Shown here in pieces: positions 2,280 to 46,395 of a DNA stretch of 64,000 nt. The stretch's first letter is position 1. Every line of letters begins with the position of its first letter. Source of the stretch: an uncultured delta proteobacterium (GTDB taxonomy: Bacteria; Desulfobacterota; BSN033; UBA1163); assembly GCA_963708295.1 (NCBI GenBank), contig CAVPSJ010000020.1:1-64000 (forward strand), read 5' to 3'. The position numbers were made by a program, and so were the translations under genes. The notes below the pieces were generated by a model. The model was given only the letters and a program-made list of their open reading frames with translations, did not search any database and was not told the DNA's origin.

Positions 2280-4494
2280 ATGAGTCTTAATGATTTTAAG
2301 CTAACGAGACGGGGATTTCTTAAAGCAACTGGAGCGACCGTGGGGGCCCTTTCCTTGAGCCATGAGCTTCTCGACTTTAAGCGGTGGGCCCATGCGAGCA
2401 CAGAGGCTCCTGTCACCCGAATCCCGACGTTTTGCAACGGATGCGGGAATCGTTGTGGCATATTTGCATCCGTCAAGAATGGAAGGCTCTGGAAGATTGA
2501 AGGCAATCCTGAGGCCAACGGCAACCTGGGAGTGGTCTGCCCGAAAGGCCATGGCTATCTTCATGACTTATACAATCCCCATCGACTGAAGGGTCCGCTC
2601 AAGAGGGTAGGGGATCGATTTGAACCCATCCCCTGGGAGCAGGCCTACAAGGAGATTGCCCAGAAGATCAATCTGATTTTGATGGATTCCGGTCCCCAGG
2701 GCATCTTCTGGGTCAACTATCCCCAGTCGAATAACGCTTATGCGCTGAGGTTGATGCATACCCTGGGAAGTCCTCACTACTTCACCCACGGGTCGACCTG
2801 TTATACGGCGAGGAACGCAGGCTGGGTGACGACGGTCGGCGAGCTTCCTTCGAACGACCTTTCCAATGCCCGGTACATCATGATCATCGGCCGGAACCCG
2901 GCAGGGGGGATCGATCTGGCCGAGGTGAAGAAGATGGTGGAGGCCAGGGAGAAGGGAGCCAAAATCGTGGTGGTCGATCCGAGGCATAGCGAGACGGCCA
3001 TTCTGGCGGATGAATGGCTTCCGATTAAACCCGGGACGGATCTAGCGTTCCTGCTGGGGATGATCAACGTGATGGTCAAGGAAGGGCTTTACGATAAGAA
3101 ATTTGTCGGGCAGAAGACGGTTGGGTTTGAGCAATTGGAGGACGAGATCGTCAACTATCCTCCGGAGTGGGCAGAGAAGGTCTGCGAGATACCGGCAAAG
3201 ACGATCATCCGAATCGCCCGGGAGATGGCGAGCGAAAAGCCCAGAGCCCTCCTTCATCGGGGCTACCATGCTGCGTTTGGTTCCCAATATCTCAACAGCT
3301 TTCAGACCGTCAGGGCACTGGCGATTGCGAACAGTCTCTTGGGGAACATCAATCGAAAAGGAGGGATCTACTTTCCTAAGACAGCCCAGTTGGGAGAGCT
3401 CCAGCCCAGGCACCCGGCCCCGGAGCTTCCCAAAATAGGAAAGTCGGATGGAACGGGAGTGCCTGGAAGGTATCCCCTGGGAAGTTACGGAGATGGGATC
3501 GCGCATGCCATTCCCGAGCTGGCCCTTCGCGGAGAGCTGAAGGCGGGAATCGTCTATCATAACAATCCGCTTCGGACCAATCCGAATCCGAAGCGGGTGA
3601 TTGCCGGCTACAAGAAACTCGAACTTCTGGTGGTCATCGACACGGTTCTTTCTGAAACGGCATCCATCGCTCACTATATCCTTCCTGAATCCTTCTATCT
3701 CGAACGCGATGAAGCGGTGGATACGAAACATGCCGGGAAGAGGGCTCAGGTGAGCATCCAGCAGCAGGTGGTCAAGCCGGTGTTTGATACCCGGCCGGGA
3801 ACTCAGATCATTATTGAGCTGGCCAGGCATCTTGGGGCGGGAAGATACTTTGACTTCACCATCGATGAGGCTAATCGTCTGAGACTTCATCCCTTTGGTG
3901 TTACGCTGGAAGACACTGAAGAAGAAAGGTCTTCTCTCTGTGGGGGAGGAATGGAAAGAGGGGTTTGACAAATTGCAGACCCCTTCGGGAAAGGTGGAGA
4001 TCTCCTCAAAGACCCTGGAGGGCCTTGGTTTTCCCGCCATCCCGCGATGGGAGGAACCCCTGGTTTCTCCCGATCCCAAGGATCCTCATTCTTTCCGGTT
4101 GCTCCATGGGAAGCAAGCGATTCATACCCATGCGATGACGGCCAATCAACCCTACCTGATGGCGATCAGCCATCGCTATGATATGACCCGGTTATGGATG
4201 AACAAGGAAAGAGGGAGACAGCTCGGTCTGAAGGATGGGGATTGGGTGCAGGTCAAATCGATGGTCGGGGAGGGGAGGATTCGAGTCCGGCTGACGGAAG
4301 GGCTTCATCCGTCCTGTGTATGGCTTCCGAGTGGTTACGGGATCTTTTCAAAACATTTGGAAACGGCCTACGACGTCGGGTTGTCCTACAATGATTTTCT
4401 TCCGACCTACTTCGACCCGACCGTGGGACATGCGATGTCCTCGGAAGTGATTGTTCAGGTGAAAAAAGCAGAGAGCATAGCGCATAGAGCATAG
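2280..4494 (+). CDS. psrA: Tat-exported molybdopterin oxidoreductase catalytic subunit, PsrA/PhsA/SrrA clade (frameshift near 3915)
   Basis: Tat motif TRRGFLK, FS0 motif CNGCGNRC..C, probable Mo-ligand Cys in THGSTCY, dinucleotide-binding C-terminus in ORF 3895..4494. Confidence 0.85.
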
Positions 4495-4568: not shown

Positions 4569-5111
4569 GTGATGGCTCGATACGGAATGGTGATTGATGA
4601 GTCGAAATGTGTGGGATGTCATGCCTGCCGGGTGGCCTGTCAGAACCAGAACCAGCTATTGGATAAGGAGGCCTACAATCACCTCGAAGAGCGGGAATAT
4701 GGGACGTTTCCGAATTATGCCCGTGAGTTCTTACCCGTTCAATGCCAGCATTGTGATAACCCTCCCTGTGTGAAGGTGTGCCCGACCGGGGCTTCCCACA
4801 AGCGGAAGGACGGGGTGGTCCTGGTGGACAAGGATAAATGCATCGGGTGTAAATATTGCATTGCCGCCTGTCCGTATAATGTCAGGATCATCAAGAAAGA
4901 GGGCTATATCGAAAAATGCCGGTTCTGCATCGAGCTGGTTGAACAAGGCGGGAAGCCCGCCTGTGTGACGACCTGCATGACCGGGGTGAGGATGTTTGGC
5001 GACCTCGACGATCCCAATAGCGAAATTTCCCGGTTCATCATAAAAAACAAATTGAGGCACTTTAAGGCCGAATTGAATACCAAGCCAAGGGTCTATTACA
5101 GGAAGGCATGA
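4569..5111 (+). CDS. psrB: 4x[4Fe-4S] electron-transfer subunit (PsrB/NrfC family)
   Basis: CVGCHACRVAC, CQHCDNPPCVKVCP, CIGCKYCIAACP, KCRFC..PACVTTC. Confidence 0.92.
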   Translation: MMARYGMVIDESKCVGCHACRVACQNQNQLLDKEAYNHLEEREYGTFPNYAREFLPVQCQHCDNPPCVKVCPTGASHKRKDGVVLVDKDKCIGCKYCIAACPYNVRIIKKEGYIEKCRFCIELVEQGGKPACVTTCMTGVRMFGDLDDPNSEISRFIIKNKLRHFKAELNTKPRVYYRKA

Positions 5112-5112
5112 G

Positions 5113-5749
5113 ATGACGGGTCAGGAGAAGGAGACGATCTGCCAGCTATTGGCTTCTCTTTTCTGTCCCCCCGATCAAGAGATGATGAGGCAGATCCATG
5201 GGGAGGCTTTCCGTTCTTTTCTAGAGAGATGCGTTGAGGGATTCGGGTCTTTTGAAAGGATTTCTTACGGAAGGTGATCCTGGGACTCTTTTAAAAGATC
5301 TCGGAGAGGAATATAGCCGCCTCTTTTCAGAATTAAACGAAGAAAGCATATCCCTGGTCGAATCTTTTTACAAACCCTGGACGCTGGATCCCCACTGCAC
5401 TCTCCCTTTTGCGTCGCAGAGAGGCTTCTTGATGGGGGATTCCGCCCTTCATCTCCTGGAGATCTATCGTCAATGCGGCTTGGAAGCAGCGGATGAATGG
5501 AAAGGGGCTCCGGATCACCTGGTATTGGAGCTTGAATTCTTATCCACCCTTTATCGACGCGCCACCGATCGTGAGGTGGAACAATTTATTAAAGACCATC
5601 TGGACTGGATTCCTCTTTTGAAAGAAGAAATGGATCGATCTGGTCCTCATCCTTTTTACAGAAGCGCTCTGGAAGTGCTTGACCTCTTTCTTGGTCAGGA
5701 GAGAAAAAGACTGGAGGAAAAAGGGAATGGAGAGACGGCAATTCATTGA
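5113..5749 (+). CDS. TorD/DmsD-family maturation chaperone (frameshift near 5235)
   Basis: N-terminus MTGQEKETICQLLASLFCPPD, then ESFY and PDHLVLELEFL motifs, FIKDHLDWIP. Confidence 0.85.
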
Positions 5750-5990
5750 GAAACTTTTTTCCCTCTTGGGGATGGCAGGGCTTCTTGTCCTGGCAGGCTG
5801 TGGAAGAGGGGAGAAGCCCCTAAGATTTGGAAATCAAGAAAAACTCTGGCAATTGGCCGAGGGGCGTGGACAATCGGAAGAGCCCGTTGACCTCTCTTAT
5901 TCAAAAAATACTCCAGCCCTGTATCGGGACGCGTCGATGGGAAAAGCGGACCCCTCGTTCGTGCCCAAAGTGGCCGGAGGCTGAAGCTGA
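5727..5990 (+). CDS. Small Tat lipoprotein, probable selenoprotein ending ...PKVAGG-U-S (87 aa)
   Basis: MERRQF twin-arginine motif, lipobox LAGC; GGA GGC TGA(5982-84) AGC TGA(5988-90); SECIS-like hairpin at 5995-6013. Confidence 0.72.
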
Positions 5991-5994
5991 GAGG

Positions 5995-6013
5995 GATTCG
6001 TCGGAGACGAATC
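5995..6013 (+). promoter_or_regulatory. Candidate bacterial SECIS element
   Basis: Perfect 8-bp stem GATTCGTC/GACGAATC with a G-initiated GGA loop; the stem starts 10 nt and the loop 18 nt after UGA 5982-84. Confidence 0.68.
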
Positions 6014-6040
6014 ATCAAAGAAATGGATGGAGAATAAGCT

Positions 6041-7027
6041 ATGGAAGGGCAGATACACGTTCACTGGAATTGGATTGTGGCCATCGACCTCTTTGCTGCC
6101 GGGTTGAGCGCCGGGGCCTTTATCATTTCAGCCACTGCCTATTTTCTAGGAAGGGAAAAGTACGAGACCATCACCAGAATCGGAGCCTATATCGCCCCCT
6201 TCCCGGTGATCGTCGGAATCCTTGCCCTCATTTACGATCTTGAGAGGCCCCATCTTTTTTGGAGATTATTTCTTACTTTTCAACCCAATTCAGTCATGTC
6301 TCTCGGATCCTGGCTCCTTTTATTTTTCTCCATTTTTAGTATGACACACTTCTATCTCTGGCTTCCGGAGCAGTTCGACTATTTGAGAATTATCCCGGCC
6401 TTGCGGTCCAGCAAGCTTTTGAGCCGCTTTCGAGGAGATAACTTGACGAAAATAAGAGGATTGGTGGCTGGATTCGGAATTCCTATTTCCATCGGGGTGG
6501 GAATCTATACGGGCGTTCTTTTGGGAGCGCTGACAGCAAGACCCTTCTGGAATAACCCCATGCTTCCGATGCTATTTCTGATCTCTGCTATGATGACAGG
6601 GTCCGCTTCGATCTGCTTTGTGGGTTGTTTCATTAAGGGATTTCAGGGAATGACCCGGGAACAGGTCAATACGAACAAGTTCATGATCCATTCCATTGAC
6701 TTCACGCTGATGGTCTTTTCTATTATTGCGATTTTCCTATTCATCTTGGGGCTTTATGTTTCGCCGAGAAGTTCAGCCGAGGCTGTCCACCTGATCATGG
6801 GGGGTGAATTCACCCTTCTTTTCTGGACCGTTGTGGTCGGCGTAGGTGTCCTCCTTCCTTTGGCTCTCGAGGTCTATGAGTTGATTCCCCACTACATCTG
6901 GCACATGGAATTGAGAGAGCATAATCCCTGGCTCTCTGGAATCATAACCACTTCTGTCCTCATCGGAGGGTTCGTGATGCGATATATCATGATTTATGCA
7001 GGACAGATGGCCCAAGTCATCTCCTAG
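6041..7027 (+). CDS. psrC: NrfD/PsrC membrane quinol-oxidising subunit
   Basis: W..AIDLFAAGLSAGA, DLERP..FW, SVMSLGSW, YTGVLLG..RPFWN, multiple TM helices. Confidence 0.92.
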   Translation: MEGQIHVHWNWIVAIDLFAAGLSAGAFIISATAYFLGREKYETITRIGAYIAPFPVIVGILALIYDLERPHLFWRLFLTFQPNSVMSLGSWLLLFFSIFSMTHFYLWLPEQFDYLRIIPALRSSKLLSRFRGDNLTKIRGLVAGFGIPISIGVGIYTGVLLGALTARPFWNNPMLPMLFLISAMMTGSASICFVGCFIKGFQGMTREQVNTNKFMIHSIDFTLMVFSIIAIFLFILGLYVSPRSSAEAVHLIMGGEFTLLFWTVVVGVGVLLPLALEVYELIPHYIWHMELREHNPWLSGIITTSVLIGGFVMRYIMIYAGQMAQVIS

Positions 7028-8456: not shown

Positions 8457-8927
8457 ATGGGAGAAATCGTTCACACGTCAAGAATCAAAATTGTAAGAGA
8501 AAAGGGTCCTACAAGAAGAGCAATGATTGAGGGGTTTAATGAGCCCGTCTATTATGGCGTTCATGGAGGAATCAAGAGATTCTATAAAGTCGAACCGGAG
8601 AAAGAGCATGCCGCTACCCTAGATCATATTGTGGCAGCCACAGCAGGCTGAATGATGGGAACATTGGCCAGGTTCCTGGCTGAAAAAAAGATTCCCACCC
8701 CGGAAGAACTTTATTGGGCAGATGTAGAAGGAGATATTGAGAATGTAAACAATGTTTTGAAAATCACCCAGATCCGTGTCAAATATCATCTCAAAGTGCC
8801 GCGAGGAAAGGCCGAAGAAGTCAAAGAGGCTTTTTCATCTTACCTTACTTCCTGCCCTGCGGCACAGAGCGTCATTGGCTGCATCAACATCAAAGATGAT
8901 ATAGCGATTGAAGAGACAACGAACTGA
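8457..8927 (+). CDS. OsmC-family protein with in-frame Sec (AATAG-U-MMGTL), 156 aa
   Basis: ORFs 8457..8651 and 8652..8927 are in frame and separated by one TGA at the first OsmC catalytic Cys position; resolving Cys in SCPAAQS; hairpin TTGGCCAG-GTTC-CTGGCTGA at 8664-8683. Confidence 0.85.
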
Positions 8928-9867: not shown

Positions 9868-10703
9868 CTAACCATAAAGATTGTCAATCCACCTCATCGC
9901 CTCAACGTCACTCACCGTCCCAAGATACCGTTGAGTCGTGGAAAGGTTTGCATGTCTTAGAATCACCTTGCTGACAATCTCAATCGGAACCCCTGAACGA
10001 GAAGCGTAAGTTGCAGCATGTCTCCGAAGATCATGGGGCCGCAAATGAATTCCAACCACCTTGCCTGCTTTGTTCACAACTCTCCTGCCTGCCGTGTAGG
10101 ATATGGGAAAGATCCGCTGATCGGACCCAAGTCCTTTCGCATTGATGTATTCCCTAAGACGGTCAGCTACCTTCTGCGGAATAAAGACAACCTCCCGTTC
10201 CTTACCACTCTTGGGGCTTCTAAGAGTGAGCTTTCTATCCTCGATATCATTTGGAGTTAATTGCAATACCTCGCTAATTCTCATCCCGCCCCGAGCCATC
10301 AATTCAAGCATCAACCGGTTCTTGGGTTTGATCGTACGAAAAATGACTTCATCCACTACTTCCTTTTCGAGAATGGTCCAGCGGGTAAGTCCAGGGGATC
10401 GATAGGACTTTTTCAGCATGGGGGTATCGCATGGGCTTCTGAAATTGGGATCAAGGTTTTGGGTGATGAAGTTGAAAAAAGAGGTCAGTTGGGAGTACCG
10501 AGTCCTTTTGGTTGCCTGTTTGGTGTCCTGATTGATTTGGGTGAGGAAAGAGAGGATTTCCTCTGGGGTTAGGGAGTTGAGGTCTCTTTCACCGAATTGG
10601 GTGGTCAGTTTGGAAAGGATCGACTGGTAGGTTTTGAGAGTGTTTTTTTTGAATGAAGCTTGTGATACTCCAGCCAACAATGGATACCTTGAGAGACTTT
10701 CAT
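9868..10703 (-). CDS. Tyrosine recombinase / site-specific integrase (indel in the A-run near 10647)
   Basis: Start MKVSQGIHCWLEYHK after SD AAGGAGG; GMRISE, HDLRRH, LRHANLSTTQRY (R-H-R-H-Y catalytic residues). Confidence 0.9.
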
Positions 10704-11230
10704 GGTGCACCTCCTTGGATGAATTTCCCTCAATGTTATCATTTGAGTATCAAATCTACAATTAATTCTTCGAAAAATTAGGGCTCTGTCTTGGCAAGAT
10801 ATATTCATCTTCAAGATGCTGGCATCCAATGGGACGTCCATAGCTTCCTCTCAACACATGGTTCTTGAATCTCATCTCACAATACAAGTTTTCCGAGTCG
10901 TAATTACCCCTTTCGCAGATAAATGCTGATAAATACAGTGTAGTTCCCGTAAAAATACCAGACTCACCCTATTTTCGCTTTCAAATGCCAGTAGTACCCT
11001 AAAGTCGTGGAACAATGAATTTCTAAGCAGTGAGAAGAACGATTTACATCACCAACCTCAAGGTTCAAACCCAACGAAAGGAGACGACGGGCGAGCTAAT
11101 CGTCGCGCTGCCGCAACTTCCGCTGTAAAGGAGGAGACCTAGGGAGAAAGGAGGTGGTAGAAGTAATCTTCAGAGGTAGGATTGAAGAATGGTGAGCGGG
11201 TCGTTTTTTCTAGATGGACTTACTAAATAA

Positions 11231-45351: not shown

Positions 45352-46395
45352 ATGCCTGAGAAGGTGGGGGATATCGGGGAGTTCGGGCTTATTCGGAGAA
45401 TCGACCATCTCCTGATTCATGAGGGTATTCGTTCTGAACGGGTGACCCTTGGAATCGGCGATGATACGGCCTCCTTTCTTCCACGCCCCGGGTATGAGGT
45501 TTTGGTTACGTGTGATTCCGTAGTGGAAGGCCGTCACTACTTGCCCGGAAAGATCAGTCCCTTGGATCTGGGGAGGCGGGCGATGGACCTAAATATCAGC
45601 GACATCGGAGCCATGGGAGGAAGGCCTCTCTATGCCCTCATTTCACTCGGACTGAGAGCGGATGTCCCTGTCCAGGATGTCGAAGAGATGTATCGCGGCT
45701 TTCTCAGGGAGCTAAACCCTTTTGACGCTTCTATCATCGGCGGAAACCTCACCCAATCCGGGGATGGGATGTTCATCGATATTACCTTGATCGGCGAGGT
45801 GGAGCAGGGAAAAGGAGTGCGACGTTCCGGGGCAAGACCGGGAGATGTCATCTGGGTTACCGGATATCCGGGCCAGGCGGCTGCGGGTCTGCAGCTCTTA
45901 CTTCGTGCACCGGAGGACTCACAGATATTAGGACATCCTTTGGTCAAGATTTATACCAACCCCTCCCATCGAGCTCGGGTGGGGGAGGCGATCGCAAAAG
46001 CCGGGCACGCTACAGCCATGATCGACACGAGCGATGGATTTCTAGGAGATCTGGGGCATATCTGCGAAGAAAGCAGGGTAGGGGCAGAATTATTCAAAGA
46101 GAAACTTCCTTTGAGTGACGATCTCCGCGAGGCGGCTCTGATGCTTCACCAAGACCCCTATGACTTCTTCCTGGGGGACAGTGATGATTATGAGCTGGTG
46201 ATCACCTGCCGGCCCGAGGGTGCGGCCCCGCTTCGTTCCGTTGTTTCCCGGTGCTGTCCTGTGTTGTTGACAGAGGTCGGAAGGATCACGGAGACGGTGG
46301 GCAACATCGTGCTGCTCCTCCCGGACGGGGACCGACGCTCGATCAACCGTTCGGGATGGGATCATTTTCGACTCATCGGCGGGGCTGGGGGTTGA
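45352..46395 (+). CDS. thiL: Thiamine-monophosphate kinase
   Basis: GEFGLI, GIGDDTA, NISDIGAMG, DTSDG, DDYEL, GWDHF. Confidence 0.93.
   Translation: MPEKVGDIGEFGLIRRIDHLLIHEGIRSERVTLGIGDDTASFLPRPGYEVLVTCDSVVEGRHYLPGKISPLDLGRRAMDLNISDIGAMGGRPLYALISLGLRADVPVQDVEEMYRGFLRELNPFDASIIGGNLTQSGDGMFIDITLIGEVEQGKGVRRSGARPGDVIWVTGYPGQAAAGLQLLLRAPEDSQILGHPLVKIYTNPSHRARVGEAIAKAGHATAMIDTSDGFLGDLGHICEESRVGAELFKEKLPLSDDLREAALMLHQDPYDFFLGDSDDYELVITCRPEGAAPLRSVVSRCCPVLLTEVGRITETVGNIVLLLPDGDRRSINRSGWDHFRLIGGAGG

Follow-up and report, generated by a model that had tools for sequence, protein, structure and literature searches.

The first 64,000 nucleotides (nt) of contig CAVPSJ010000020.1 (forward strand; GenBank assembly GCA_963708295.1), from an uncultured delta proteobacterium of the Desulfobacterota lineage UBA1163, are referred to here as the window. 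This DNA carries an operon for a polysulfide/thiosulfate reductase (Psr/Phs)-type molybdoenzyme, in which a small gene located between a TorD-like chaperone gene and psrC very probably encodes a lipoprotein with a penultimate selenocysteine (Sec). The small gene begins with an ATG at 5727, nine nt behind a Shine-Dalgarno sequence read as GGAGG (5713–5717, + strand), and its first frame (5727–5981) consists of 85 standard codons that read MERRQFIEKLFSLLGMAGLLVLAGC...PKVAGG and include MERRQF...LAGC. Its 3' end is GGA GGC (5976–5981), TGA (5982–5984), AGC (5985–5987) and TGA (5988–5990). A preliminary description of this DNA had given this end exactly to the base, and its placing of a twin-arginine translocation (Tat) lipoprotein gene at this position between the TorD-like gene and psrC is likewise borne out. 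Re-read on the pattern common to all 125 homologous loci with an intact end (a TGA, a single sense codon and then a stop that varies), the gene spans 5727–5990 (+), with 87 codons and a true stop. In this re-reading, which is strongly supported by comparative sequence evidence, UGA-86 would specify Sec, AGC Ser-87 and the TGA at 5988–5990 termination. A hairpin resembling a Sec insertion sequence (SECIS), with an 8-bp stem and a GGA loop, follows at 5995–6013 (+), wholly 3' of the true stop.

The surrounding genes are all encoded on the same strand, and Pfam confirmed the neighbours named in the preliminary description (TorD-like, psrC, psrB, psrA and rhodanese). The first is a periplasmic single-domain rhodanese with a signal peptide and a CKTAGR active-site loop (1730–2171; frames 1730–2011 and 1890–2171), followed by the psrA/phsA-like catalytic subunit, with a molybdenum-bispyranopterin guanine dinucleotide (Mo-bisPGD) site and a Tat-type N-terminus (2280–4494; frames 2280–3968 and 3895–4494). 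Next are psrB, for a four-cluster ferredoxin subunit (4569–5111; Fer4_11), and the TorD/NarJ-like chaperone gene (5113–5749; PF02613), whose 3' end overlaps the start of the small gene. The NrfD-type membrane quinol subunit is encoded by psrC (6041–7027; PF03916, E 1e-52). Outside the operon, the C-terminus of a tyrosine recombinase or integrase-like protein (..HDLRRH..RYLG..) can be recognized by eye in a 280-residue open reading frame at 9868–10710 (–).

The case for recoding begins with the TGA codon itself. Homologous loci were gathered irrespective of their stop codon, giving 126 in total: 16 from whole genomes (the one to which the window belongs and those of relatives), 20 from named contigs of metagenome-assembled genomes (Syntrophaceae, Syntrophorhabdus and other Thermodesulfobacteriota), 80 from metagenome contigs and 10 from a phylum-wide sample. 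L051 is truncated short of the end of the gene and was left out, so that 125 loci with an intact 3' end remain. Several of them represent one genome present in two collections; the set resolves into 98 different sequences over the 45 nt downstream, or into 106 different loci when a longer key is applied. The codon after Gly-Gly is TGA in every one of the 125 (115/115 in the main set and 10/10 in the phylum-wide sample). It is followed by exactly one sense codon (AGC in 95 loci, AGT in 28, GGT and AAA in one each) and then by a second stop, which is TAA in 65 loci, TGA in 51 and TAG in nine. The third base of both Gly codons before the UGA varies freely. The stops of neighbouring genes in these loci are also mixed, with counts of 30 TGA, 23 TAG and 20 TAA for PsrB, 48 TAA, 12 TGA and eight TAG for PsrC, and 10 TAA, nine TAG and six TGA for PsrA. 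Even the TorD-like stop varies (TGA 71, TAG 13, TAA 9), though it lies inside the coding sequence of the small gene. In the DNA alignment, conservation extends through TGA-AG-Y-T and then collapses in a spacer that differs in length and sequence between loci; this pattern reads as the footprint of translation past the TGA for exactly one extra codon. The end of the small gene in the window is corroborated by all other loci. An alternative is that the TGA is an ordinary stop and the protein ends in ..GG, with the hairpin serving as an mRNA stability or processing element or controlling translation of psrC. This would leave unexplained why TGA is invariant while the second stop and those of neighbouring genes vary, why a single codon with synonymous AGC/AGT variation follows, and why conservation collapses only past the second stop.

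Bacterial SECIS elements normally lie within coding regions, according to the sections covered of a recent selenoprotein inventory (PMC13188914). With Sec in the penultimate position, the SECIS of the small gene must instead lie behind the true stop, where it is untranslated. Such an arrangement is functional in Escherichia coli, where a SECIS behind the stop works for thioredoxin reductase constructs. The hairpin in the window is composed of GATTCGTC (5995–6002), the GGA loop (6003–6005) and GACGAATC (6006–6013), with a 10-nt spacer between the first UGA and the stem, no T-run after it and the first loop G at nt 22 counted from the U of UGA. It thus matches the earlier account of a perfect 8-bp hairpin with a G-first loop and no U-tract. 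A perfect 7–8-bp hairpin with a G-first loop 8–14 nt past the stop occurs behind six of 6285 long frames in the same genome and behind one of 2910 frames ending in TGA, and the exact motif is found once in the 4.9-Mb genome; the hairpin behind the small gene is more than chance.

Conservation of this hairpin, which the preliminary description had proposed to look for in homologues, proved extensive. An unbroken stem of 6–9 bp is present in 97 of the 98 distinct sequences, the exception (L048) having one C-A mismatch. In an alignment of 90 distinct sequences, 97.2% of the cells of the 8-bp helix are paired, with compensatory changes on both sides at five of the eight pairs (27 cells); none of 500 shuffles reached the observed covariation, and slid controls were all far lower. 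Loops begin with G in 87 sequences (GGA 41, GGU 20, GGC 11, GUU 5, GGG 4, GUG 4, GUA 1, GUC 1), and in a further ten, loss of the closing pair widens the loop to 5 nt and puts the same G second. The first loop nucleotide lies at nt 20–25 from the U of UGA, with nt 22 as the mode (50/97). This spacing is shared with two molybdoenzyme genes of the same genome, FdhA on contig C4 (UGA at a conserved ..AR[LI]-U-HS.. site) and a second at C15:57964–58560 (–) (UGA at ..ARI-U-HS..), both of which place the first G of a GGUCU loop at nt 22; an 8-bp stem with a GGA loop, its G at nt 24, can also be formed by one selD. Were the TGA a plain stop, the equality of loop-G distance with the FdhA SECIS of the same genome would go unexplained. 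Control of psrC translation fits poorly too, given that the hairpin and the psrC ribosome-binding site do not overlap in the window. Separately, many relatives (e.g. L008, L017, L045, L046, L064, L073 and L103) have a conserved TAATGGTTTTTACGGnCACGTG-like stretch about 10–35 nt behind the hairpin; it lies between the hairpin and psrC, where the intergenic spacer of those loci is longer, is absent from the window and could be a promoter-like or second RNA element.

The genome encodes the machinery that Sec insertion would use, a point that the preliminary description had marked for checking: selA, selB, two selD genes and tRNA-Sec were all found. The two full selD genes (C17:66608–67531 and C4:371872–372792) each have their own in-frame TGA, and a third SelD-like match in the window (45442–46137) is weak, at 59.9 bits and below the cut-off. 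The duplication of selD may or may not be real, given an estimated genome contamination of 5.6%. Passage of the UGA by other means, either near-cognate read-through as Trp or Cys or a slip of the ribosome, is scarcely credible beside this complete Sec system and a hairpin with SECIS geometry and G-first loops; nor does the sequence suggest a slippery site. Taken together, the invariant TGA, the AGC/AGT variation, the hairpin covariation and the Sec machinery give strong support to the earlier proposal that the protein ends in ..GG-Sec-Ser, and UGA-86 is decoded as Sec with high probability. The accompanying claim that gene callers end the protein at GG and so hide the Sec is equally well supported. 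None of the outcomes that the earlier author had named as telling against the proposal was seen, TGA being present in all 125 loci, the hairpin conserved and the Sec machinery encoded.

The window also contains what is probably a second selenoprotein gene. An OsmC-like gene at 8457–8927 (+) is split by an in-frame TGA (8649–8651), matches Pfam OsmC when read through (E 9e-11) and has, some 15 nt past the TGA, a hairpin whose loop is GUUC. The NCBIfam model for OsmC-related (seleno)proteins matches it weakly (16.9 bits against a cut-off of 95).

The small protein is predicted to be exported as a Tat lipoprotein. Its first 25 codons (5727–5801) encode a Tat-type signal (ERRQF) and a lipobox (LAGC), modelled as a helix by AlphaFold2 (AF2); R4 never varies, and across three alignments R3, F6, G24 and C25 are conserved either fully or to at least 90%. 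Tat-lipoprotein features are thus recognizable in the alignments from the conserved R3/R4/F6 and G24/C25 residues. Cys25 would become the lipidated N-terminus, so that the mature product would be a lipid-anchored periplasmic peptide of 63 residues; one divergent homologue (P0135) lacks the lipobox Cys. The C-terminal half (TPALYRDASMGKADPxFxPKxxGG) is the most conserved part of the protein. It ends in a tail that reads DPSFVPKVAGG-Sec-Ser in the window (5952–5987), delimited from the alignments and from monomer and complex models, in which F78, P80, G84 and G85 are invariant. In the AF2 monomer (mean predicted local distance difference test score, pLDDT, 65), helices are confined to residues 3–24, the signal, and 37–44; the rest is low-confidence coil with a disordered tail (pLDDT <50), and the model provides no fold usable for searching. 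The protein has no Pfam match at E≤10 and no sequence relative in the PDB, and its only NCBIfam match at the same threshold is to the signal part of LptM (E 0.04). Matches in the ESM Atlas all score below 0.9 and comprise unnamed clusters and Tat-signal peptides.

These properties also bear on the possibility that the protein is a GG-ended sulfur carrier of the ThiS/MoaD type, with a C-terminal thiocarboxylate formed before Tat export. The apparent GG terminus would suit such a carrier, as would the neighbouring rhodanese: among NCBIfam models it scores highest with that for MoeB, in the rhodanese part (78 bits; cut-off 449). Against it, the absence of Pfam matches includes the ThiS/MoaD family, and the AF2 model shows a signal helix and one short helix only, with no beta-grasp fold. 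The protein is predicted to be exported and lipid-anchored, no E1-like adenylating gene occurs in the conserved cluster, and the succession of TGA, AGY and stop would be unexplained. This explanation is regarded as highly improbable.

The association of the small gene with one type of molybdoenzyme is strict. Long loci share the order response regulator, rhodanese (approximately 154 residues), PsrA (approximately 730), PsrB (179 residues), TorD-like protein (approximately 217), small gene and PsrC (approximately 330). Of the 12 long loci listed, 11 preserve the segment from rhodanese to PsrC, and the other (L010) spans PsrB to PsrC only; Pfam confirmed operon parts in five of the long loci, among which L040 is without the rhodanese. 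Upstream of the operon, the window encodes the C-terminal region, with AAA lid and Fis-type helix-turn-helix, of a sigma-54-dependent activator (201–806 and 1223–1824, both +), and relatives have a receiver-domain response regulator in this position; the window's own receiver gene is apparently split between frames. The corresponding PsrA subtype, with 81–89% identity within it, occurs in 17 of 61 relatives, and the small gene is on the same contig in 16 of these; in the seventeenth (G020), PsrA abuts the contig end. The other Psr-like paralogues of the relatives share no more than 37% identity with this subtype and are not accompanied by the small gene. In the phylum sample, 15 of 401 genomes, from three families, carry the small gene. 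DNA nearly identical to the window operon is found in freshwater-sediment, wetland and peat metagenomes.

PsrA is closest to the Thermus enzyme (PDB 2vpw_A, E 2e-106), and the encoded complex includes a Mo-bisPGD subunit with a Tat signal and a Cys ligand, a four-cluster subunit and an NrfD subunit. PsrA scores 491.6 bits against the PhsA equivalog model NF012032, below the cut-off of 694. On these features the host complex is classified as a Psr/Phs-type molybdoenzyme and is not assigned as the thiosulfate reductase PhsA. For the rhodanese of a relative, Wolinella Sud (1qxn) is a match at E 1e-11, with other rhodaneses closer.

Structural modelling suggests that the small protein is bound to this PsrA. 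Residues 36–730 of PsrA from a relative (41-row alignment) were modelled with the mature small protein, residues 26–85 (43 rows); the ipSAE scores were 0.85, 0.84 and 0.87, and none of three controls exceeded 0.00. The partner pLDDT was 64–71, and at least 83% of contacts were shared between runs. The mark set by the tool is reached by 116 of 157 solved complexes and two of 215 mismatched pairs, counts that apply only roughly where own alignments are supplied. In the model, residues 33–75 of the peptide (5835–5951), a conserved segment that includes GNQEKLW and TPALYRDASMGK, contact PsrA residues 389–398, 410–417, 431–446, 459–463, 661–667 and 687–722; no solved complex resembles this pair. 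On this predicted interface, the small protein is likely to be a PsrA-bound subunit. The arm, estimated to extend about 11 residues past the last placed contact, would in principle be long enough to swing. The preliminary description had proposed a tethered carrier that shuttles between the rhodanese and PsrA. Association with PsrA is supported by synteny, co-occurrence and the complex model; the length of the predicted interface favours a fixed subunit whose tail is free over a free shuttle.

Several observations weigh against this interpretation. The alternation of Cys and TGA hoped for among homologues is absent, with no Cys form among the 125 loci, and the classic Sec/Cys alignment test consequently cannot be applied. 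Inspection of 14 and then 20 homologue proteins gave the same result, in that every intact one ends in GG and none has a Cys; the latter figure is the number of matches from a library of 1.84 billion representatives, which held no Cys-form or longer relative. Read-through adds only two residues, and a truncated product ending at GG would consequently differ little. An Rfam scan of 5700–6100 at E≤10 returned no SECIS family, only two chance matches to long non-coding RNAs. SelA is present in all 16 carriers of the small gene, and in 56 of the 61 relatives, so its presence in the carriers discriminates nothing. At the level of the complex, a Cys of PsrA itself, Cys174, is conserved and aligns with that of the Thermus enzyme, so that Sec is not needed as a Mo ligand. 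The complex model used the 85-residue form, without Sec-Ser, and did not place residues 76–85 confidently, and hence does not show contact of the arm with the Mo funnel. Contigs from one public RNA run cover 6099–6396 of psrC only. Finally, three genes of the window operon are frameshifted. Relative to public contigs of nearly identical sequence, the torD-like gene of the window contains a surplus base at 5236 and psrA another near 3910–3914; the rhodanese gene is split between frames around 1925–1945. The same genes are intact in relatives (TorD-like protein approximately 217 residues, PsrA approximately 730, rhodanese 154), and split matches elsewhere in the genome (FdhA, C4:536931–538890; FlpD, C14:283130–283499) suggest an indel-prone assembly; the frameshifts are probably assembly errors rather than signs of a decayed operon.

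Some of these points are the ones that favour a plain stop at the TGA: the missing Cys form, the two codons past the TGA, the lack of an Rfam SECIS match and the annotated homologues, which are nearly all 84–88 residues long among the best 120 of 288 hits, the 14 inspected ending in GG. Set against the stop-codon pattern and the hairpin geometry, a plain stop is considered improbable.

The combined evidence is best accommodated by the following mechanism. The small gene would be translated as an 87-residue precursor in which SelB and tRNA-Sec read UGA-86 as Sec, directed by the hairpin behind the true stop. Processing at the Tat signal and lipobox would then give the 63-residue lipid-anchored peptide, which would be largely unstructured alone and would wrap residues 33–75 onto PsrA, becoming a fourth subunit of the Psr/Phs-type molybdoenzyme. 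The conserved tail (..DPxFxPKxxGG-Sec-Ser) would remain as a short arm. Its selenolate may take sulfane sulfur from polysulfide, thiosulfate or the rhodanese persulfide as a Se-S adduct, and the arm may present or cleave this sulfur at the Mo site, with electrons supplied from quinol via PsrC and PsrB. As a whole, the combination of Sec, a subunit bound to PsrA and a role of the arm in handling the sulfur substrate is rated as moderately probable. The sulfur-relay role of the arm is put forward tentatively, at slightly below even chances. A more specific version is more tentative again. It posits an obligate Sec-only peptide subunit with no Cys form and with its SECIS outside the frame, in which the selenopersulfide of the arm would feed PsrA, the true substrate being protein-bound Se-S(n) rather than free polysulfide; the enzyme concerned would be a respiratory molybdoenzyme of wetland and sediment Thermodesulfobacteriota.

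A serious alternative to carrier chemistry, itself judged unlikely, is that Sec is inserted and serves another purpose, with the arm acting as an S-S-cleaving nucleophile, a Mo ligand or gate, a redox or oxygen guard, or a factor in PsrAB assembly or Tat export. All of the recoding evidence applies equally to this possibility, and the long predicted PsrA interface suits a structural or active-site role as well as it does a carrier. There is also a precedent for Sec acting directly in polysulfide reduction in MccSep, as described in the sections covered of its report (PMC13510729). Conversely, Cys174 of PsrA argues against it, the co-encoded periplasmic rhodanese suggests a sulfur relay, and a GG-x terminus resembles known carrier arms.

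Comparison with known systems places the proposed sulfur-handling arm among familiar mechanisms. In mammalian thioredoxin reductase, Sec resides in a C-terminal Gly-Cys-Sec-Gly arm, and the enzyme has been expressed in E. coli with the SECIS behind the stop. The similarity is in a penultimate Sec on a flexible Gly-rich C-terminal arm and a SECIS usable from the untranslated region; the proteins are unrelated, and the small protein is by prediction a periplasmic lipoprotein attached to a molybdoenzyme. Its arm has no neighbouring Cys, so that, unlike in thioredoxin reductase, no selenenylsulfide pair could form within the arm. SoxY is a Tat-exported sulfur carrier with a C-terminal GGCGG arm. 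Common to both are a signal of the Tat type, a C-terminal Gly-Gly-(Cys/Sec) arm and a setting in periplasmic sulfur metabolism, whereas the small protein would have Sec rather than Cys, a Ser end, a lipid anchor and PsrA rather than SoxZ as its partner. Identity with SoxY was rejected in view of the lack of Pfam and PDB matches at E≤10, a model without an Ig-like beta-sandwich and the GG-U-S end.

Closest in gene content are the Sud and PsrABC system of Wolinella succinogenes and PsrABC of Thermus thermophilus (2vpw–2vpz), which resemble the operon in PsrA, PsrB, NrfD-type PsrC and a Sud-like periplasmic rhodanese; neither has a fourth small subunit or a selenoprotein, and PsrA of the window belongs to a tight separate clade. 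The families KCU-star (NF033934), UXX-star (NF041114) and NF041211 are likewise small bacterial proteins with Sec 0–2 residues from the true stop, and are routinely shortened by gene callers for this reason. They differ in end motif (GG-U-S here), context and lineage, and an hmmscan of the 87- and 88-residue read-through forms of the small protein gave no match to any of these three models. MccSep, a Sec-dependent multiheme polysulfide reductase of Geobacter, is comparable in its use of Sec for respiratory polysulfide or sulfur reduction within the same broad group of anaerobes. According to the sections covered, it is a multiheme cytochrome with an internal Sec and Cys-form homologues, whereas the small protein would be a cofactor-less peptide on a molybdoenzyme (PMC13510729).

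No previous account of such a subunit was encountered. Section 7 (parts 1–2) of the 2026 inventory, which covers 119 families of prokaryotic selenoproteins, contains no such protein, and includes other C-terminal families, KCU-star and UXX-star (PMC13188914). The portions covered of the Haft 2022 preprint, the MccSep paper and a 2026 survey of sulfur disproportionation hold nothing further on one. The author of the preliminary description knew of no Sec carrier subunit of Psr/Phs/Srr enzymes, and a full-text literature search whose scope lay outside bioRxiv supplements, with the families of Haft & Tolstoy 2025 covered through the table of the 2026 inventory and through NCBIfam, agrees, having found neither a Sec subunit nor a Sec carrier for these enzymes. 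The finding is rated as a new selenoprotein family and a new type of subunit, in which known mechanisms would be brought into a new arrangement.

If correct, this interpretation would have consequences for both selenium and sulfur metabolism. The family would be invisible to homology-based and Cys/Sec-pair searches, since it has no Cys form, gains only two residues on read-through and is annotated everywhere as a hypothetical protein of 85 residues. It would also represent a selenoprotein family without any Cys form and a natural bacterial SECIS located entirely outside the reading frame. A fourth subunit of Psr/Phs-type sulfur reductases would bear the most reactive residue of the system, and the route taken to the buried Mo site by sulfane sulfur, whether insoluble or scarce, would become open to direct test. 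Selenium supply would thereby be tied to sulfur respiration.

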